Below are positions 10,180 through 28,585 of a stretch of DNA of 28,585 nucleotides, in pieces (position 1 is the stretch's first letter; each line of letters starts with the position of its first letter). The stretch spans positions 1 through 28,585 of the forward strand of contig CAZQPD010000199.1 of NCBI GenBank assembly GCA_964595235.1, given 5' to 3'. Position numbers and translations under genes: made by a program. The notes beneath the pieces are model-generated. The model made no database searches. It was not told the origin of the DNA and was given only the letters and a program-made list of their open reading frames with translations. This stretch comes from an uncultured Polaribacter sp. (GTDB lineage Bacteria; Bacteroidota; Bacteroidia; Flavobacteriales; Flavobacteriaceae).

Positions 10180-11541
10180 CTATTCATCCCTGCCGGACGG
10201 AATGACTTCTTTCAAAGTAGAGAAAAAATACTTTATCAATATTTTGCCGGCAGGCATAAGAATCCATGTAAGGGAAATGAATATTCCCCATCCAGAATAA
10301 AACATCGTTCGATACCACGGTATCAGCCCGTCTTGCAATACGGCAAACGGTACAGGCATATCCTCCGCCATCCAGCGGCTTTTTCCGATACCCGCCATAA
10401 ACAAGGATATGAGGAATACCGCCAATGAGATATTGAGCAGGGCAAAGGCGTATTGCAAACCCTTGCGTACCGAAAACCCGGGATGCAACCCGGAGCTGAT
10501 ATAGAGAATGGCCGATAGCAGAATCATCGTATTGATGCCTATCATGCTCCCCATGGTATGGGTGACCGTGATGTGTGTGCCGTGGGTGTGGTAATTGATA
10601 GCCGGGATGGAAATGAGCAAGGCGAGTATCAAATTGACAAATATCCAAAAGTCAGCTGCCAGCATGAACTTGTAAGCGATGAGATGATGACGGCGCTTCT
10701 CTCTTTTCATCGACTTGATAAAGGTGAAAATGATATTCAATAATATCACCCATTCGGTCATACTCATCAGATAAGATGTGATACGTACCCACGGGCGGGT
10801 AGGTAGAATGTATATATGGTGAGCCCAACCGAACATCAAATTGGCAAGCCCGAGAAAATAAAAGAAAAACACCTTCTTGCCTCGCGCCAATGAATCATCC
10901 CCCTTAATTTTACACATCAAATAGATGGAAAGTCCGTAAACCAGTTGATTCCATGAGCCAACGAACGAACCTACTGATTTCCATTGAATGGTAAAATCGC
11001 GGATAAAATTCTCCCTGAAATATGGCAATACCCAAAAGTGCGCCTCTATCAAATGATATATCATAAACACCATACCGGTTCCCCACATCCAGTAATATAC
11101 AGGCATGTCTTGTGCGCGTAATCTTGCATTTTTCAGATAATTGACAGCAAAAAATACCCAGCCGGCAAGTATTCCTATCATAATCACGGGTGCAAATACG
11201 AAAAATTCACGCCCACCTACCTTGCCGGTGATGATGGATAGGTAAATGGCAGCCCCCGATATCAGAAAGATATAGAAATGCCATTTAATCAACGACAACG
11301 ACAAGCCGCGTTTCCCCTCTTTTGCCATCAGAAAATAATAAATACTTCCCGTGGCGGAAAGCACTATCCATGATACCGACGATACCACATGAATGGGGCG
11401 GATCTTGGCAAAATGCCAAAAATCCTTGGTAAAATCAGGATGGAGATATTGATATGACGCCCAAAGCCCACCTGTAACGCTAATGAACAATGAAACAAGT
11501 GCGAGAAACAGGAACGATAAAATGTATTTTTTTCCTTTCAT
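10180..11541 (-). CDS. Divergent heme-copper oxidase superfamily subunit I, NorB (cNOR)-like, with non-canonical active site
   Basis: About 12 TM helices. RPIH, GGREF, GWAHH, SMTE and NYHTHGTHITVTH match NorB motifs, but the HLWVE motif is absent. Start set at ATG 11541 because it forms an ATGA overlap with the upstream stop (ORF track gives 11562). Confidence 0.85.
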   Translation of the reverse strand: MKGKKYILSFLFLALVSLFISVTGGLWASYQYLHPDFTKDFWHFAKIRPIHVVSSVSWIVLSATGSIYYFLMAKEGKRGLSLSLIKWHFYIFLISGAAIYLSIITGKVGGREFFVFAPVIMIGILAGWVFFAVNYLKNARLRAQDMPVYYWMWGTGMVFMIYHLIEAHFWVLPYFRENFIRDFTIQWKSVGSFVGSWNQLVYGLSIYLMCKIKGDDSLARGKKVFFFYFLGLANLMFGWAHHIYILPTRPWVRITSYLMSMTEWVILLNIIFTFIKSMKREKRRHHLIAYKFMLAADFWIFVNLILALLISIPAINYHTHGTHITVTHTMGSMIGINTMILLSAILYISSGLHPGFSVRKGLQYAFALLNISLAVFLISLFMAGIGKSRWMAEDMPVPFAVLQDGLIPWYRTMFYSGWGIFISLTWILMPAGKILIKYFFSTLKEVIPSGRDE

Positions 11542-11966
11542 TTGGTTTTGATTTCTACCCATCCGTTTTTTAGAAAACGGGCTTGTTTGTTAGGATAATA
11601 CCCTGTGGAATCCACTGCCCGGAGGAAAGCGGTAAGAGCTTCTTTCTCCCGTTCGCCGAATTGGTATTCCGGCATGTGACGTATCCCGCTGTTCAATATC
11701 CCGCGGATGTATTCCGGACCTTTGGAAGGATGTGAATGGATATTGGTCAAATCAGGACCCAAATATCCGCCCAATCCGTATATCTGATGGCATGCGCTGC
11801 AATTGTTCTTTTGCCAAATGTCCTGCCCGCGTATGGCTGCACGGGAGAGGCGGTGTGATACAATATGTGCATCACCCGTATAAACGGCATAGTTGTAAAA
11901 TACAAAAGCGATAACTAATATAACCAGTATCAGTTTGTTATAAAAAGTGCGCCGCATCGACTCCAT
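11538..11966 (-). CDS. NorC-like membrane-anchored monoheme cytochrome c
   Basis: N-terminal TM helix. GQDIWQKNNCSACHQIYGLGGYLGPDLTN (CxxCH in a NorC-like context) and distal Met in HMP. Confidence 0.88.
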   Translation of the reverse strand: MESMRRTFYNKLILVILVIAFVFYNYAVYTGDAHIVSHRLSRAAIRGQDIWQKNNCSACHQIYGLGGYLGPDLTNIHSHPSKGPEYIRGILNSGIRHMPEYQFGEREKEALTAFLRAVDSTGYYPNKQARFLKNGWVEIKTK

Positions 11967-11969
11967 TTG

Positions 11970-11985
11970 TGTAACATTTGCTACA
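11970..11985. promoter_or_regulatory. Candidate operator TGTAACATTTGCTACA
   Basis: 16-bp imperfect palindrome overlapping the -7 box and likely start site of the norC-like gene. Near-identical copies at 647-662 and 605-620. Confidence 0.6.
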
Positions 11986-11991
11986 AATATA
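11984..11991 (-). promoter_or_regulatory. -7 element (TATATTTG) for the norCB-like cassette
   Basis: Exact TAnnTTTG match 17 nt upstream of ATG 11966. Confidence 0.7.
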
Positions 11992-12061: not shown

Positions 12062-13471
12062 ATGGATGAATTATTCAGAAAGGTAGAAGAGATTATCCGC
12101 AGGAAATATTCGGAAGAGCCCGGCGTACCGGTTTCGGATACGGAGTTGCTTTCACCGGAAGAATTAAGCGATGGCATTGCCTTGAAAGTAGGCGAACAGG
12201 GGCTGTCGGAACCGGAGCTGGTGGAGTTGTTGGAGAAAGTATATCACCACAGTATCCGGACAGGCAGTGTGTATTTTATGAACCAAATGTTCGGCAGTGT
12301 ACAGAAGGCGGCATGGCTTGCCGACATCTTACTGCCCGTATTCAACACATCCGTATATACGTATGAGGTGGCACCGGTGTTCACCCTGATGGAACGTGAG
12401 GTGATAGCCGCATTATCCGTCGAAATATGGGGGAAAGAAGGCGACGGGGTATTTACCGGTGGTGGGAGTTTGTCGAATATGTATGCCATGTATCTGTCGT
12501 TGATCCGGGCTTCGGAGCAGTGGAGAAAAACAGGGGTGGCGGGCGCACCGCCTTATGCAGTTTTCGTATCGGACCAAGCTCATTATTCATTTACCAAAGG
12601 GGTGTCGTTCCTCGGGCTGGGGGAGGATGCCTTGTATCCGGTACCGTCGGGAGGAGATTCCGTCATCACCGCAAAGGCTTTGGAAGAGACGATAGAACGC
12701 AGTATGGCGGATGGCAGGAAGCCCTTGATGGTCACCGCCATAGCCGGTACGACCAAGTCCGGAAGCATTGACCCGCTGGAAGAGATAGCGGAAGTGGCGG
12801 AACGTTTCGGCTTGTGGTATCACGTAGATGCTGCATTTGGCGGAGCCCAATTATTCCACCCGGAATACCGGAACAAGCTAAAAGGAATAGAGCGGGCTGA
12901 TTCGGTCATTTGGAATTTTCACAAAGTCATGGGTATGCCGCTTTCCACTTCGTCGTTTCTCGTACGCCGTCAGGGGCTTTTGAACGGGGCGTTTTCGGTA
13001 GAAGCGGATTACCTGTTTCACGACGAAGACAGCCGTTTTGATTTGGGGCAAAAATCCCTGCGCGGCGGCAGGCGCCCGGATGTGTTTAAGCTCTGGCTCA
13101 TGTGGAAATACGCCGGTAAGAAAGGCTTGTCGCAGCATGTGGAACGCCTGCAACGCTCGGCGGAGGATTTTTCCCGTATGATAGATTCACATCCCGAAAT
13201 GGAGCTCTATGCTACCCCCGCCACTTCGATAGTCTGCTTCCGGTACAAGCCCCCGCATATCCGTGACGGACGGGAGCTCGACAAACTCAATGTGGAAATC
13301 AGGACACAAATCGTAAGGAAGGGTAAAATGTTGTTCAATTACACCCGTATCCGGGGAAATATCTATTTGCGAACGGTGGTATTGAATCCGGAGATAGAGG
13401 AAAGACATTTCCGGCATATCATCGATACGGTAGTAGAGACTGCTCATAAAGTATTGAACCCCGTATCATGA
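12062..13471 (+). CDS. Group II PLP-dependent amino acid decarboxylase (GAD/CSAD/GADL1-like)
   Basis: FMNQMF, NTSVYTYEVAPVF, GGSLSN, AHYS, HVDAAFGG, WNFHK (PLP Lys288) and GRRPDVFKLW. Confidence 0.9.
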   Translation: MDELFRKVEEIIRRKYSEEPGVPVSDTELLSPEELSDGIALKVGEQGLSEPELVELLEKVYHHSIRTGSVYFMNQMFGSVQKAAWLADILLPVFNTSVYTYEVAPVFTLMEREVIAALSVEIWGKEGDGVFTGGGSLSNMYAMYLSLIRASEQWRKTGVAGAPPYAVFVSDQAHYSFTKGVSFLGLGEDALYPVPSGGDSVITAKALEETIERSMADGRKPLMVTAIAGTTKSGSIDPLEEIAEVAERFGLWYHVDAAFGGAQLFHPEYRNKLKGIERADSVIWNFHKVMGMPLSTSSFLVRRQGLLNGAFSVEADYLFHDEDSRFDLGQKSLRGGRRPDVFKLWLMWKYAGKKGLSQHVERLQRSAEDFSRMIDSHPEMELYATPATSIVCFRYKPPHIRDGRELDKLNVEIRTQIVRKGKMLFNYTRIRGNIYLRTVVLNPEIEERHFRHIIDTVVETAHKVLNPVS

Positions 13472-14514
13472 GACACCCGGTACTCTTACTGCTTGCCGTT
13501 CCGCTATTGTTCCTGTCCTGCCGTGATCATACGGAAGGGGAAATTTCGCACAAGGCGGAATGGATAAGGGAATTTTTCGATACCGTAGAGGAATACCCTG
13601 AAATATATGCCCTCTCATATTGGCATGAAGATTTCGACGATACGCATTTCCGTTTGGATTCCTCCACGGGTTCACTCGAAGCGTTCCGCGAAATGGCAAC
13701 CCGGGACTGTTGTCTCCACACGGCGGTTTTCGAAGACGGTAAGCTCGTCGCCGTAGAGGGGAAGAAATACCTGTCGGCATTTCCCGGTTTTTGCGGGGAA
13801 GAGGATTGTGTCGGCAACGGGGCTATCCAGGATTATGAGTCGTTGACAGGGGTGCCGCTGGCTTGGGTGTATTTCTCCGACAATTGGATGGACGAATTGG
13901 GTTTTCCTTACGGGCATGTTCAGACGATCGTACAGGCGGGGCGTACGCCGTTTATCCGGATGATGGCACGTAGTGATTTTGAAGAGCAAGGGATAGACCC
14001 CGTGTGGAATTTGGAGCAGATCATTTCCGGACAGTTCGATGAAGCGTTGTACCAGTGGTTTTCCGAAGCGCGGGATACCGGAGTGCCTTTGCTCGTGGAG
14101 TTCGGTACGGAGATGAACGGCAGCTGGTTCCCGTGGAACGGAAGTTATTACGGCGCCGGACAAACGGACGGATACGGAGACTCCGCTTATCCTGATGGTC
14201 CCGAGATATTCAGGGATGCATACCGGCATTTGATAGACATTTCGCGGCAAGCGGAAGCCAATAATATTACCTGGTTCTTTCATTTCGATGTCAGCGGTGA
14301 CCCGCCAGAGGCGTGGAACGACCCGGTATATTATTATCCCGGCGATGATTATATCGACTGTTTGGGGGTGATTACCTACGGGGCTTTTACCCCCGGAGAG
14401 GTATCGGAAGAGCTCATGCCCGGATATTTGCTCGATAAGGCATACACGGCATTTACTTCCATCAGTACGTCGAAGCCGTATGCCGTATTGGAATTTGCCG
14501 TGACGGAATATTAA
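13468..14514 (+). CDS. GH26-like glycoside hydrolase lipoprotein, apparently circularly permuted
   Basis: Lipobox FLS-C18. GTEMNGSWFPW (acid/base Glu), YYPGDDYID, and C-terminal KPYAVLEF (nucleophile Glu). ATGA overlap with the decarboxylase stop. Confidence 0.8.
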   Translation: MRHPVLLLLAVPLLFLSCRDHTEGEISHKAEWIREFFDTVEEYPEIYALSYWHEDFDDTHFRLDSSTGSLEAFREMATRDCCLHTAVFEDGKLVAVEGKKYLSAFPGFCGEEDCVGNGAIQDYESLTGVPLAWVYFSDNWMDELGFPYGHVQTIVQAGRTPFIRMMARSDFEEQGIDPVWNLEQIISGQFDEALYQWFSEARDTGVPLLVEFGTEMNGSWFPWNGSYYGAGQTDGYGDSAYPDGPEIFRDAYRHLIDISRQAEANNITWFFHFDVSGDPPEAWNDPVYYYPGDDYIDCLGVITYGAFTPGEVSEELMPGYLLDKAYTAFTSISTSKPYAVLEFAVTEY

Positions 14515-24784: not shown

Positions 24785-26074
24785 ATGAATACAATATTTA
24801 TCAGCATAGTGGTTTTTCTGGTTGTCATCATGTTGTTGGTGGTCATCCTACTGGTAGCAAAAGCGAAGCTTTTGCCTTCGGGGAAGGTGAAGATAATAAT
24901 CAACGGAGAGCGGGAAATAGAAGTGAACACGGGTAATTCACTCCTGGCGACATTGGGGAACGAAAAGATCTTTTTGCCTTCTGCCTGTGGCGGGGGTGGT
25001 ACATGCCTTCAATGTGTGTGTACGGTCAAAGAGGGGGGTGGAGAGCCTTTGCCTACGGAGACCCCGCATTTCACCCGTAAGGAATTAGCCGAAGGCAAAC
25101 GGTTGGGCTGCCAGGTGAAGGTAAAAGGTGATATGAAAATCGAAATACCCGAGGAGATTTTCGGTATAAAAAAATGGGAGGCTACCGTGGTGTCGAATTA
25201 TAATGTAGCGTCGTTTATCAAGGAGTTCATAGTGGAAATTCCCGAGGATATGGATTATAAGCCGGGAGGATATATACAGATAGAAGTTCCGCCGGTAGAA
25301 GTGAAGTATAAAGACATAGATATCACGGCACATCCGGATGAACATCCCGGTGAACCGGACAAGTTCCACTTGGAATGGGATAAGTACAATCTATGGCCCT
25401 TGGTGATGAAGAACGACGAGGAAGTGGTCAGGGCATACTCCATGGCTTCATATCCTGCCGAAGGACGAAGGGTGATGCTGAATGTACGAATCGCTACTCC
25501 GCCTTGGGACAGAAATGCCAATACATGGATGAAAGTAAACCCCGGTGTGGCATCCTCATATATTTTCTCACGAAAACCCGGTGATAAGGTCGTGATATCA
25601 GGACCTTACGGAGAGTTCTTTATCAATGAAGACTCCGATGCCGAAATGCTTTACATAGGCGGTGGTGCCGGGATGGCACCCATGCGTTCGCATTTATACC
25701 ACCTGTTCAAGACATTGAGAACCGGTAGAAAAGTATCTTATTGGTACGGGGGCAGGAGTAAGCGTGAGTTGTTTTATATCGAACATTTCAGGGCATTGGA
25801 ACGGGAATTTCCGAATTTCAAGTTCTATATCGTATTGTCCGAACCGCTTCCGGAAGATAATTGGAAGGTCAAAGAGAGTATCGATGCCCCCGGTGACGGA
25901 TTTACCGGTTTCGTGCACCAAGCCGTTATAGACCATTACTTGAATCACCATGAGGCACCCGAAGATATTGAGTTCTATTTCTGCGGTCCGCCGTTGATGA
26001 ACAAAGCCGTGGTAAAAATGTGTTATGACTTCGGAGTTCCGGATGAGAATGTACGTTTTGACGATTTCGGGTGA
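24785..26074 (+). CDS. nqrF: Na+-NQR subunit F
   Basis: 2Fe-2S motif CGGGGTCxxC...[22 protein letters not shown] and terminal FDDFG. Confidence 0.97.
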
Positions 26075-26087
26075 TGTGGTAGATAAA

Positions 26088-26125
26088 GGCTTTGCTGAAA
26101 ATCATAGCAGTGCCAGATTTTTTTT
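26088..26125 (+). terminator. Possible intrinsic terminator after nqrF
   Basis: Imperfect GGCTTTGCT/AGCAGTGCC stem followed after 3 nt by an 8-T run. Confidence 0.45.
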
Positions 26126-26183
26126 AATTTGTAGGGCAGAGCGTTAAGAAAATGTCCGGTGGGGATTTTTAACCGGTCAGCCG

Positions 26184-27536
26184 TTATTGTTCAGATTTAT
26201 CACTTGACATATTTTCGAGAAAGATTTTGTTATTCTCGTAAATTGCTTCGGTCAACCTGTTCACGTTACGTATCATTGATATTACCAATACAATAACACT
26301 TAAGAAAAGTACCGTAATAAAAGATCCGAAAATACCTTTAATGCTCCAAAAACGGTATTTTTCACGAGTATCCAATTTTGATATGTATTCCATTTTCGCT
26401 TTTCTCAGTTCATCATTATAGTTTTTTTCCCATTTTTGAACAGCATGTTCATATGCTTTGTCAATTTCTCGGATTCGTTTGTTTCTCAATTGGTTGTTTT
26501 TTCTATATTCGTTATAGTAGATGCTCAATGCGTGAGCTTGTGTTCCATCAATAGGGAGCTTCGGCAATAGCTTAATAAAGCCATTTGTACTCTCGATAAG
26601 AGCATTCAAATTGTTGTTATAGTAATTATAATATTCTCTGTGCATTTTTTTGATAACCGCCTCCCGGGATGCATAGGAAAATTTAGGGATAATTTCACTC
26701 TGATAGTCAATCATGTTAAGGCCATCTTTTGGATTTTTATTAATAAATCTCCAAATGTAATAATATGCATTTAGCTGATTTTTTGAAGGCAAATTTTGAA
26801 GTACTTTTGCAATTTTGCTAAATCTCTCTTCTATTTGATTGACCTTATACCGATTTAATGGTATATAGAAAAAATAGTTTTCAATGAAATTAATTCTACT
26901 TTCGACATCGGCTAAACTTTCGAGTAAAGTATTTACAGATTTCAGTATTTTTTCTTTGTCTGCATAGTCTGTTCGTTTTTTTGCATCAGTAAAATCAATG
27001 AATCTTTCGGTAAAACCTTTTTTTGTCAGTTTAGCTTTTTTAAAGGACGGGTTTTTTGTTTTACGGAACAATTTTCTATCACTTTCCGAAGCAAAGTAAG
27101 TAATGTATTGATTATTCCAAAAGGATTGGTTTTCTGCGAATGGTATTAATTCTTTTGTTTTCGTAATTTGGTCATAAAAATTGGATAGTGCCAAACTGTC
27201 GATAATTTTAGGCTTATTATTTTCTTCGGCATTGAATTCAGGTTCAGGCATTATCATAGTATCTTCCGTCTTGTTGTTTTCCTGTTTGTTTTTTTCGACA
27301 GGCAGTTTTTTCAGTATATTTTCTATTTTCACTTCGGAAATTTCCGGGTAAGCTTCTTTTGTAGGTGGCTGAGGTTTTACGACTTTTCTTTCATGAGGGG
27401 GGACATATGACCATAGTAGCACTCCTATTCCGGCTAGGATAATTAGGATGCTTATGCCAATTAGTAAATGCCAAAAATAGCGGTTAATGGTATAGTAATA
27501 TTTGTTTTCGAGATTACTGAAATTAATTTTTTTCAT
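26184..27536 (-). CDS. Hypothetical membrane protein (TM helix near each terminus, large helical loop)
   Basis: 450-aa ORF in AT-rich DNA. Hydrophobic helices at about residues 21-43 and near the C-terminus, a Pro-rich linker and a coiled-coil-like segment. No family recognised. Confidence 0.75.
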   Translation of the reverse strand: MKKINFSNLENKYYYTINRYFWHLLIGISILIILAGIGVLLWSYVPPHERKVVKPQPPTKEAYPEISEVKIENILKKLPVEKNKQENNKTEDTMIMPEPEFNAEENNKPKIIDSLALSNFYDQITKTKELIPFAENQSFWNNQYITYFASESDRKLFRKTKNPSFKKAKLTKKGFTERFIDFTDAKKRTDYADKEKILKSVNTLLESLADVESRINFIENYFFYIPLNRYKVNQIEERFSKIAKVLQNLPSKNQLNAYYYIWRFINKNPKDGLNMIDYQSEIIPKFSYASREAVIKKMHREYYNYYNNNLNALIESTNGFIKLLPKLPIDGTQAHALSIYYNEYRKNNQLRNKRIREIDKAYEHAVQKWEKNYNDELRKAKMEYISKLDTREKYRFWSIKGIFGSFITVLFLSVIVLVISMIRNVNRLTEAIYENNKIFLENMSSDKSEQ

Positions 27537-27555
27537 ATTATTAATGTTATAATAA

Positions 27556-28585
27556 TTAATACTCTCTGAAAAGATAATGTGAAATAGATGAGCCGTGTTG
27601 TTTCAACCAGTTTTGTCCTTCCACAACGGCTGCAAGCGGAAAGGATTCAGAATTCTTAACTTTCAACACTACGACGGGGGATTGCTTGTTGATCTCGAAA
27701 TATCCAAAACGGGTTCCTTTCGGGAGGGGATTACCTTCGAGTTCTACAAGTTTTATCTTTGTATTGGTCTCCTTTACGATTTTATGAATATGTCTGTAAT
27801 ATGGGAAAACAATCTTAAGAGTTTTATTCACTGACACGTTTTTCATTGCCCGGCTGAAAGCTTCTTGTGGGTTTTTCGGGTAATTTTTTATTACTGATTG
27901 CAATAGGCTAGTCGAGAATTTATCGTCTGATGAAATCGAATAAGAATTGTTTGATAATGTGCTTCCCGAAGGATTTTTTATAGTTATGTCAAATTTAATA
28001 TTTGCTCTAAACCCAATTTTTTTTGTATGTACGGCTTTTCCATCGATTACTTTTGTAACCGTATATTCAAATGAATTGGCTTTTTGGCTGAAATTATTAA
28101 TAAGAATGATATTTTTTATAAAGTAGTCACTATACTCCTCATGGTCTTCAATTTCATCTGTTCTATTAGTTAGCTGTCTTTTTATGATGTTTATTACATG
28201 TCTTGTATTTTCGTTATTCATATCGAGATTTGAAGCTACTCTAATCACGTGGTAACTATTTTCCATTTTGTCTTGGTCGTAGTATTTTACCAGTACATCG
28301 TTATTTTGAAACTTGAAGTTTTTTATTTTGTTTTTCTCGTTGAATTTTTTTGTTGATATCTCTTCTCCGTCCATGTATTCGATTATCTCAATTGTCCCGT
28401 CCGGGTGATAACGTTTCCACGTACCGTCCGGAAGCCCGTTTGAAAAGCCCCCTTCTGCTACTTTTTCTCCTTTTTTATATTCTTCCATTTTTGTTTTTTC
28501 CCCTTTTTCGTCGAAATACTCCCATTGTCCCTCTTTCACATTATTGTTGAAGCGTTCTATCTTCGATATATTACCATTCTTTCCA
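27556..28585 (-). CDS. MORN-variant (YwqK-like) repeat protein with unknown C-terminal domain, 5'-truncated by the window edge
   Basis: Repeats EGQWEYFDEKG and DGTWKRYHPDG. The frame stays open upstream of the track GTG (28539) to the window end (...GKNGNISKIERFNNNVKEGQW). Confidence 0.75.
   Translation of the reverse strand, partial: GKNGNISKIERFNNNVKEGQWEYFDEKGEKTKMEEYKKGEKVAEGGFSNGLPDGTWKRYHPDGTIEIIEYMDGEEISTKKFNEKNKIKNFKFQNNDVLVKYYDQDKMENSYHVIRVASNLDMNNENTRHVINIIKRQLTNRTDEIEDHEEYSDYFIKNIILINNFSQKANSFEYTVTKVIDGKAVHTKKIGFRANIKFDITIKNPSGSTLSNNSYSISSDDKFSTSLLQSVIKNYPKNPQEAFSRAMKNVSVNKTLKIVFPYYRHIHKIVKETNTKIKLVELEGNPLPKGTRFGYFEINKQSPVVVLKVKNSESFPLAAVVEGQNWLKQHGSSISHYLFREY

Follow-up and report, generated by a model that had tools for sequence, protein, structure and literature searches.

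The 28,585-nucleotide (nt) contig CAZQPD010000199.1 of an uncultured Polaribacter sp. (assembly GCA_964595235.1), which was analysed over its whole length and is called the window below, carries on its minus strand a gene for a small cytochrome c followed by a gene for a large polytopic membrane protein. The operon very probably encodes a two-subunit membrane haem enzyme with the architecture of the nitric oxide reductase that depends on cytochrome c (cNOR), whose large and small subunits are NorB and NorC. The catalytic centre of the large subunit is rebuilt, in a pattern kept by a large family of relatives that we named QWK after the invariant motif in its sixth transmembrane helix (TM6). 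The pair probably represents a cytochrome c-dependent nitrogen-oxide reductase of a sister family of cNOR.

The cytochrome c open reading frame (ORF) encodes 142 residues with an N-terminal hydrophobic helix and a CSACH motif at residues 56-60, and the NorB-like ORF encodes 460 residues (see the table). The latter shares 25 nt with the cytochrome c gene, and its second ATG (Met8, 11541-11539) overlaps the TGA of the cytochrome c gene (11540-11538) as ATGA. Since the homologues of the NorB-like subunit are 438 to 453 amino acids (aa) long, Met8 is the likelier start, giving a protein of 453 aa. Whichever start is used, the reading frames indicate that the two genes are translationally coupled, as had been proposed in an earlier sequence-only reading of this stretch. 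Upstream of the cytochrome c gene lies a sequence that matches the Bacteroidetes -7 promoter consensus, TAnnTTTG. A scan for sigma-70 promoters and terminators gave results no better than those for shuffled sequences, the sigma-70 model being not suited to Bacteroidota.

The best matches of the small subunit in the PDB were NorC chains (3o0r_C, 1.3e-10; 4xyd_B, 8.4e-7), and its scores with the NCBIfam CcoP and CcoO models were far below the cut-off. The alignment to 3o0r_C pairs C56, C59 and H60 as well as Met98, which corresponds to the Met of the 'R-x-M-P' motif, and equates G66 and Y68 with NorC Gly71 and Tyr73; the GGY motif noticed earlier is thus retained, and it is present in all 68 partner cytochromes compared. 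Residues C56, C59, H60, Y63, G64, G66, G67, Y68, D72, M98 and P99 are all kept in the same 68 proteins.

The large subunit matched the Pfam COX1 family (3.6e-26) and none of the NCBIfam models. When the single sequence was searched against the PDB with HMMER, the only matches were cNOR NorB chains (4xyd_A, 8.6e-8; 3o0r_B, 7.9e-5), and a profile of 35 sequences scored higher with NorB (1.6e-32 and 1.7e-25) than with cbb3 CcoN (~1e-18 to 1e-12) and qNOR (4.5e-16). An AlphaFold2 model built on the 35-sequence alignment (predicted local distance difference test score 90.8, predicted template-modelling score 0.91) has the helices expected for a 12-helix haem-copper oxidase (HCO) subunit. Foldseek placed the cNOR NorB chains 4xyd_A and 3o0r_B on top, with template-modelling scores of 0.83-0.88, root-mean-square deviations of 2.4-3.0 Å and 19-20% identity, followed by cbb3 and then qNOR. 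The assignment to a cNOR-like two-subunit haem enzyme made in the sequence-only reading is therefore borne out for both subunits, by the best PDB sequence matches to NorB and NorC and the best fold match to NorB.

The active site was mapped by HMMER alignment to P. aeruginosa and Roseobacter NorB from the PDB, and alignment by hhalign to six canonical flavobacterial NorB sequences agreed. What the individual P. aeruginosa residues do is known from the cNOR structures. Many of them are retained: R55 corresponds to Arg57, H58 to the haem b ligand His60, R118/E119 to Arg134/Glu135 (Ca2+), D189 to Asp198, W194 to a conserved Trp, H248/H249 to His258/259, E270 to Glu280, H327 to His339 and H335 to the haem b3 ligand His347. 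In both alignments G198 stands at the position of the FeB ligand His207. The FeB ligand Glu211 is lost, a one-residue deletion or Val201 being found in its place, the Glu215 position is occupied by N205, so that only the Glu280 equivalent of the cNOR Glu215/Glu280 pair is kept, and the second haem b ligand, His349, is replaced by M337, a position at which all compared cNorB and CcoN sequences have His. The Glu138 equivalent of the window copy is Val122. The loop between TM5 and TM6 is ~9 residues longer than in cNOR, with E173 at its start.

All residues listed in the sequence-only reading were found at their positions, and its two central observations, a TM6 without His or Glu and an HTM motif with Met where NorB has HGH, were confirmed by the alignments and by the conservation of both features in the family; no His was aligned with the FeB His207 position. 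It had also pointed to a motif H170-x-x-E173-x-H175 in TM5, of which E173 proved to be invariant, whereas H170 (203/274) and H175 (193/274) are not conserved and H170 is rare among representatives clustered at 50% identity. It had overlooked the invariant K195 and N205. Residues K195, G198, G202, N205 and Y209 are spaced i, i+3, i+7, i+10 and i+14, and by helix periodicity they would share one face of TM6, the one on which cNOR carries His207, Glu211 and Glu215.

Conservation was assessed in 274 full-length proteins with the family TM6 motif, a sample biased towards close relatives. K195, G198, N205, E173 and H58 are present in all of them, R55, H327 and H335 in 273, H248, H249, E270, Y209 and E119 in 272, and M337 in 270; the pattern is also kept in the 35 diverse sequences. 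Because it is fixed family-wide, in homologues that lack HLWVE and HGH, the window copy cannot be regarded as a decaying allele.

The family is large. A word-indexed search returned more than 2,216 clusters at 90% identity, and 1.84 billion 50% representatives, searched exhaustively with HMMER, yielded 365 relatives, 108 of them below 1e-30; QWK was the only large non-canonical relative of cNOR returned by the latter search. A scan of one genome per GTDB species confirmed at least 576 loci, mostly in Flavobacteriales and other Bacteroidota. An identical copy of the window protein is carried by a 32.8-kb contig in ENA and by a contig in Logan. QWK has no specific Pfam or NCBIfam model, and its members bear the database names "cbb3-type oxidase subunit I" or "NorB" ('nitric oxide reductase subunit B'). 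The earlier suggestion that the protein may be known but uncharacterised is thus about right, whereas 'new family' was overstated, as was the weight placed on H170 and H175, which conservation does not support. QWK-type genes lie outside the Bacteroidota in a few gammaproteobacterial or proteobacterial metagenome-assembled genomes (MAGs), among them the chromosome of a Woeseiaceae MAG (L075) and a MAG labelled Proteobacteria (L072), which suggests horizontal transfer or mis-binning.

Features of the window: the cytochrome c-QWK operon, its active-site residues and the adjacent genes. Residue numbers of the large subunit follow the 460-aa ORF; fractions give the number of family members (of 274) or partner cytochromes (of 68) that keep the residue.
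Feature	Position	Strand	Evidence or conservation
NorC-like membrane-anchored mono-haem cytochrome c, 142 aa (gene callers: Met4 start, 139 aa)	11538..11966	-	Pfam Cytochrome_CBB3 4e-10
Haem c attachment motif C56-S-A-C59-H60	11787..11801	-	C56, C59, H60 in 68/68
G66-G67-Y68, equivalent to NorC Gly71/Tyr73 (Ca2+ ligands in P. aeruginosa cNOR)	11763..11771	-	Alignment to 3o0r_C; 68/68
Met98, presumed sixth haem c ligand	11673..11675	-	Alignment to 3o0r_C; 68/68
TAtaTTTG, match to the Bacteroidetes -7 promoter by consensus only, 17 nt ahead of the ATG of the cytochrome c gene	11984..11991	-	Sequence reading
ATGA start/stop overlap, translational coupling	11538..11541	-	Sequence reading
NorB-like subunit with 12-helix haem-copper oxidase fold, 460-aa ORF, probable start Met8 at 11541 (453 aa)	10180..11562	-	Pfam COX1 3.6e-26
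R55-P-I-H58, first axial His of low-spin haem b and conserved Arg	11389..11400	-	R55 273/274, H58 274/274
R118-E119 of the GGRE motif, Glu135 equivalent (Ca2+ ligand)	11206..11211	-	E119 272/274
E173, family-specific invariant Glu, periplasmic end of TM5	11044..11046	-	274/274 in QWK, 87/87 in QWH; Ala in cNorB and CcoN
TM6, residues 188-210 (RDFTIQWKSVGSFVGSWNQLVYG), without His or Glu; stripe K195-G198-G202-N205-Y209	10933..11001	-	K195, G198, N205 each 274/274
H248-H249, two retained non-haem-metal ligands, TM7	10816..10821	-	272/274 each
E270 (S-M-T-E, TM8), Glu280 equivalent; aligns with the Glu of cNorB 'SALEP'	10753..10755	-	272/274
H335-T-M337, haem b3 proximal His kept, Met for the second haem b His	10552..10560	-	H335 273/274, M337 270/274
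PLP-dependent decarboxylase (Pyridoxal_deC), divergent from the pair	12062-13471	+	
GH26-like protein	13468-14514	+	

A bootstrapped neighbour-joining tree was built from QWK, cNorB and a sister group, QWH, and rooted with flavobacterial CcoN. In this tree QWK is a clade apart from canonical cNorB; it is monophyletic in the point estimate with 47% bootstrap support, compared with 100% for cNorB, 97% for QWH and only 52% for QWK and QWH together. The identity between QWK and flavobacterial cNorB is ~21%. In seven loci (L002, L003, L009, L013, L020, L024 and L025), from Aequorivita lipolytica, A. vitellina, Tenacibaculum caenipelagi, Xanthomarina spongicola and MAGs, there is a canonical norC-norB pair with HLWVE and HGH, accompanied by norQ, norD and COX3- and COX4-like genes, and a few kb further on comes the pair of cytochrome c and QWK.

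QWH comprises ~110 clusters, all from MAGs of Saprospirales, Opitutales, Parvularculaceae and Oceanipulchritudo. It shares with QWK E173, N205, H248/H249, H335, M337 and the NorB-like fold at ~25% identity, but has His for Lys195, Asp for Gly198, His-His-His at 248-250 and Ala for Glu270. Judged by these residues, QWH may be a related but different solution that still binds a metal through His/Asp/His/His. The canonical flavobacterial cNorB sequences show a peculiarity of their own: where P. aeruginosa NorB has G-R-E135-F-L-E138, they have W-E-G-R-K-F-L-E (L002:406-1755, L003:2519-3853, L013, L024, L025 and L009), so that the Ca2+-ligand Glu is matched by a Lys and the Gly has an additional Glu before it. 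The alignment suggests that their Ca2+ site may differ from that of the model enzymes.

Because the electron input, the Ca2+ bridge, the polar residues and the haem b3 His are all intact, the pair would be expected to work as a cytochrome c-dependent reductase at haem b3. Electrons would enter at the NorC-like haem c and pass to the low-spin haem b, which would be ligated by His58 and Met337 and probably be of raised potential, and then to the high-spin haem b3 on His335. In nNOR, the same His/Met substitution at the low-spin haem was estimated to raise the potential by ~150 mV (PMC11214002). A Ca2+ bridge of the cNOR type (E119 with G66/Y68) and the periplasm-side polar residues D189, E270 and H327 appear to be kept. 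Since these polar residues are those of cNOR, the periplasm is probably the source of the protons, which would probably make the reaction non-electrogenic.

The distal pocket would lack the FeB site of three His and a Glu and would contain H248, H249 and E270 together with the invariant K195, N205 and E173. It may hold either a metal bound by two His and one carboxylate (H248, H249 and E270), or no metal, the ammonium group of Lys195 providing the positive charge. It is conceivable, if rather improbable, that QWK altogether dispenses with the second (FeB/CuB) metal and that the Lys195 ammonium, Asn205, Glu270, Glu173 and the two free His form a distal pocket for a nitrogen-oxide chemistry that has not been assigned to the superfamily. 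A metal-free pocket of this kind could, for example, belong to the long-sought membrane-bound, acetylene-insensitive N2O reductase or serve the reduction of an anionic N-oxide.

The genomic context was analysed in 80 related loci, in which ORFs were called and clustered and the recurrent clusters named with Pfam and NCBIfam, neighbours being counted within ~8 kb. In 69 of the 80 loci the gene directly upstream of the NorB-like one is that for the cytochrome c. The most frequent neighbours are NadA/NadB (39/80) and a RIC/YtfE-type di-iron protein (28/80), followed by a Crp/Fnr regulator and NrdD (22/80 each), a 603-aa protein of no known family (21/80), and NrdG, an Rrf2 regulator and a 409-aa membrane protein of no known family (18/80 each). 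NorD (15/80), NorQ (14/80), NosY (13/80), a truncated globin (10/80), Hemerythrin-PAS (6/80) and a NirK-cytochrome c with an FGE/NirV-like gene (6/80) are also found, as are NosZ (Sec-type) and NosD; NorQ and NorD accompany a canonical cNorB paralogue. Several Flavobacterium genomes show the order norB - nirK - nirV-like - x - porin - norQ - norD - COX3 - COX4 - OsmC - cytc - QWK - (603 aa), which continues with nrdG< nrdD< RIC< nadA nadB ... globin< nosY< nosF< nosD< ... nosZ<. Aequorivita loci that do not resemble those of denitrifiers carry the QWK pair with Rrf2, a hemerythrin-like gene and RIC. As the associations recur in different gene orders across several families, they do not stem from one inherited block.

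These neighbours make a nitrogen oxide, encountered under low oxygen or NO stress, the most likely substrate, and on balance we favour an enzyme acting on a nitrogen oxide. NO reduction or scavenging is ranked above N2O reduction, because the NO-stress genes (RIC, Rrf2, globin and hemerythrin) are commoner neighbours than the nos genes and because the pair follows nor genes; the remainder falls to other chemistry or to a non-catalytic role. The specific assignment to a scavenging or detoxifying isoenzyme that converts NO to N2O is tentative, although it is the best placed of the individual activities; conversion of N2O to N2 has roughly half its weight.

In 25 of 68 loci the 200 nt upstream of the cytochrome c ORF contain an exact TGAT-N4-ATCA palindrome, which resembles Crp/Fnr sites and typically stands at about -65 from the ORF start; the expectation calculated from all locus DNA is ~0.03 per region. 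It also precedes OsmC where this is the first gene of that form of the operon (8/9), Crp (8/27), NadA (7/40) and RIC (5/29), compared with 29 of 505 other genes. This distribution suggests a shared Crp/Fnr-type regulon for cytochrome c-QWK, OsmC, Crp/Fnr, NadA and RIC. The FNR box TTGAT-N4-ATCAA was found with at most one mismatch in 4 of the 68 loci, the looser palindrome being the recurrent form, and neither of the two is present upstream of the window operon.

The 603-aa protein (L011:3433-5244 (+)) often lies immediately 3' of QWK on the same strand (L036, L042, L044, L046, L049 and L053) and may be a functional partner or maturation factor; the window has no copy of it. The 409-aa protein is a polytopic membrane protein (L046:5135-6364 (+)) that appears in Flavobacterium in the order Crp/Fnr > membrane protein > fasciclin > cytochrome c > QWK. 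Neither protein matched a sequence in Pfam, NCBIfam or the PDB. NadA (quinolinate synthase) and NadB (L-aspartate oxidase) adjoin the pair in several orientations, for instance in L001, L004, L023 and L044, and NadA, being an Fe-S enzyme, might conceivably be co-regulated with NO-stress or anaerobic genes.

The rest of the window is an ordinary Bacteroidota chromosome, with genes for an electron-transfer flavoprotein, acyl-CoA dehydrogenase, AddA-like helicase, HflX, enoyl-CoA hydratase, SAM synthetase, Rho and NqrA-F, and with Era directly downstream of the pair on the same strand. No nir, norQD or nos gene was found in the window, in agreement with the sequence-only reading, which had reported no nirS/nirK, norQ or norD. 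The nearest relatives (~60% identity, including a Lutibacter MAG) share the arrangement GH26-like< PLP-decarboxylase< >cytc-QWK in all four cases examined (L083-L090), and have ApbE< and a TlpA-like thioredoxin< downstream, where the window has Era. As this subclade lacks NO and denitrification neighbours, the function of the window copy is proposed from its homology to the QWK family and not from its own context. Immediately downstream of the pair, L046 and L049 carry a shorter decarboxylase that clusters with the one in the window. Towards its end (~26000-28585), the window has a G+C content of 0.33-0.34, compared with ~0.46 elsewhere, and the ORFs 26184-27536 and 27556-28539 (-) gave no significant Pfam match; this part may be recently acquired DNA.

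Several points weigh against a nitrogen-oxide reductase. No member of QWK has been characterised biochemically, and the lost FeB His and Glu are residues held to be essential for NO reduction in established cNOR biochemistry. Canonical cNOR and NosZ co-occur with QWK, so that those genomes show no obvious gap in either activity. Where K195, N205 and E173 stand with respect to haem b3 is predicted from alignment and helix periodicity. Furthermore, the neighbour counts are inflated by shared ancestry, in particular within Flavobacterium and Aequorivita, and are not phylogenetically independent, and the window and its nearest relatives have neither NO or denitrification neighbours nor the TGAT-N4-ATCA box. 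The candidates for another chemistry or a non-catalytic role are the reduction of nitrite or the dismutation or oxidation of NO, in a haem pocket without metal that is cationic (Lys195 and two free His), and an electron-transfer or NO-sensing module. The invariant Lys that takes the place of the metal-binding stripe, the Gly at the His position, the probably raised potential of a His/Met-ligated haem b, for which nNOR is the precedent, and the housekeeping contexts of the window's subclade would all suit such a role. However, the full cNOR architecture for electron and proton input is conserved, which fits a reductase better than a sensor, NirK already adjoins the pair in several loci, and none of these activities has positive evidence in its favour; together we consider them improbable.

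We know of no haem enzyme that is a physiological N2O reductase, but one has been proposed within the HCO superfamily. Murali et al. (2024; PNAS 121:e2316422121, PMC11214002) described a clade 'closely related to cNOR' without the active-site Tyr and with unprecedented active-site features, for which the main text names neither residues nor members. They proposed it as an N2O reductase and as the explanation for the enzyme of Flexibacter (Solitalea) canadensis, an N2O reductase that is membrane-bound and insensitive to acetylene and sulfide, citing Jones et al. 1990 and 1992. Their count for this 'N2O red' clade is 25 NCBI genomes, 597 IMG hits and 293 GTDB genomes, which amounts to ~11% of that for cNOR (PMC11214002). 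QWK agrees with what this text gives of the clade in its relatedness to cNOR, its phylum and its rough size, and we think it somewhat probable that the two are the same, although the clade could instead be QWH or both. F. canadensis is a member of the Bacteroidota; among the best 80-120 matches listed for the word-indexed search, the species-genome scan, a Chitinophagaceae QWK query and a QWH query, no Solitalea was found. In this interpretation, haem b3 in the rebuilt pocket would reduce N2O to N2, and the Flavobacterium loci, with the nor/nirK genes on one side of the pair and the nosZ cluster on the other, are in line with it. Nevertheless, in the same text gNOR is presented as the first family to replace an active-site His, which conflicts with a clade that has no TM6 His; the clade of Murali et al. 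could instead be QWH. In several loci a clade II NosZ is also found within 8 kb of QWK, and its commonest functional neighbours are the NO-stress genes RIC and Rrf2, not nos genes. We therefore regard N2O reduction by QWK as unlikely, though less so than the other chemistry or non-catalytic roles.

Residue evidence led us to reject a pseudogene or decaying copy, a canonical cNOR and a cbb3 oxidase. An ordinary cNOR, intact or in decay, might be suspected since cNOR is the closest structurally characterised family and some relatives are named 'nitric oxide reductase subunit B', but one FeB His and the FeB Glu are absent, Glu215 is replaced by Asn and one haem b His by Met, changes fixed in 270-274 of the 274 relatives. 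A canonical cNorB is moreover a separate gene nearby in the seven loci described above, and the ORFs are intact and the AlphaFold2 model is confident, which leaves this explanation with a very small probability. The chance that the large subunit is subunit I of a cbb3-type cytochrome c oxidase reducing O2 is, if anything, smaller still. The source names of the relatives, the COX1 match and the alignment of Tyr209 with a Tyr in flavobacterial CcoN point that way, but without a TM6 CuB His a His-Tyr cross-link is impossible, the partner is NorC-like and not CcoO/CcoP, both profile and fold are nearer to cNOR than to CcoN, and L001 and L012 each have a true CcoN at another place.

N2O is the product of NO reductases, and its only proven biological sink to our knowledge is NosZ, so that gene inventories of N2O source and sink depend on recognising the right HCO families. 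QWK is present in hundreds of genomes of Bacteroidota, which are abundant in oceans, soils and wastewater, and it is mis-annotated and may already carry a provisional name. As its active-site residues contradict both of the labels 'cbb3 oxidase' and 'NorB', it is probably miscounted in denitrification surveys. The family breaks the superfamily rule of three invariant His at the second metal and has an invariant Lys/Gly/Asn stripe instead, and is thereby a natural experiment on the need for that metal. Its cultured carriers, which include Flavobacterium aquatile, F. enshiense, F. croceum, Aequorivita lipolytica, Tenacibaculum caenipelagi and Xanthomarina spongicola, make the proposed alternative N2O reductase directly testable. 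The window copy is thus one member of a large family and no unique oddity, and a test case for an alternative N2O or NO enzyme.

Compared with known systems, the pair is closest to the P. aeruginosa-type cNOR. It shares the two-gene operon of a norC- and a norB-like gene, the membrane-anchored mono-haem cytochrome c with CxxCH, Met and the Gly/Tyr Ca2+ ligands, the 12-helix fold, and the equivalents of His60, His347, His258/259, Glu135, Asp198, Glu280 and His339. It departs from cNOR in the FeB ligand set of three His and Glu211 and in the bis-His haem b (His207 to Gly198, Glu211 lost, Glu215 to Asn205, His349 to Met337), at ~20% identity, and in the invariant Lys195 and Glu173, the longer TM5-TM6 loop, its own clade coexisting with cNorB and the absence of norQ and norD from the window cluster; some true cNORs also lack NorQ and NorD, according to PMC12067857. 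With the 'N2O red' clade of Murali et al., as far as their text describes it, QWK is compatible in being related to cNOR, which profile and fold rank first, in the missing active-site Tyr and the novel active-site features, in its link to Bacteroidota and in being about a tenth as common as cNOR, whereas the replacement of an active-site His that the paper reserves for gNOR does not fit. The pattern of K195, G198, N205, E173 and M337 was not found described in the literature searched, including the main text and preprint of that study. QWK resembles nNOR in the His/Met ligation proposed for its low-spin haem, but nNOR keeps the full cNOR-type FeB ligands, is of B-family origin and has a CuA-type subunit II, whereas QWK stands on the cNOR/C-family side with a cytochrome c partner. 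Like the NOD candidates and gNOR, it is an HCO member in which a canonical metal ligand is substituted. NOD and qNOR, however, are single fused polypeptides of ~750-800 aa with a NorC-like N-terminal domain without haem c, whereas QWK has 453-460 aa and a separate haem c protein; gNOR is related to the B family with a His to Asp change, and neither gNOR nor NOD has K195/G198/N205 or a NorC partner. Finally, cbb3 CcoN, the commonest database name of the relatives, belongs to the same superfamily branch (15-16% identity, template-modelling score ~0.8), but QWK lacks its TM6 CuB His, its cross-link partner arrangement and CcoO/CcoP.

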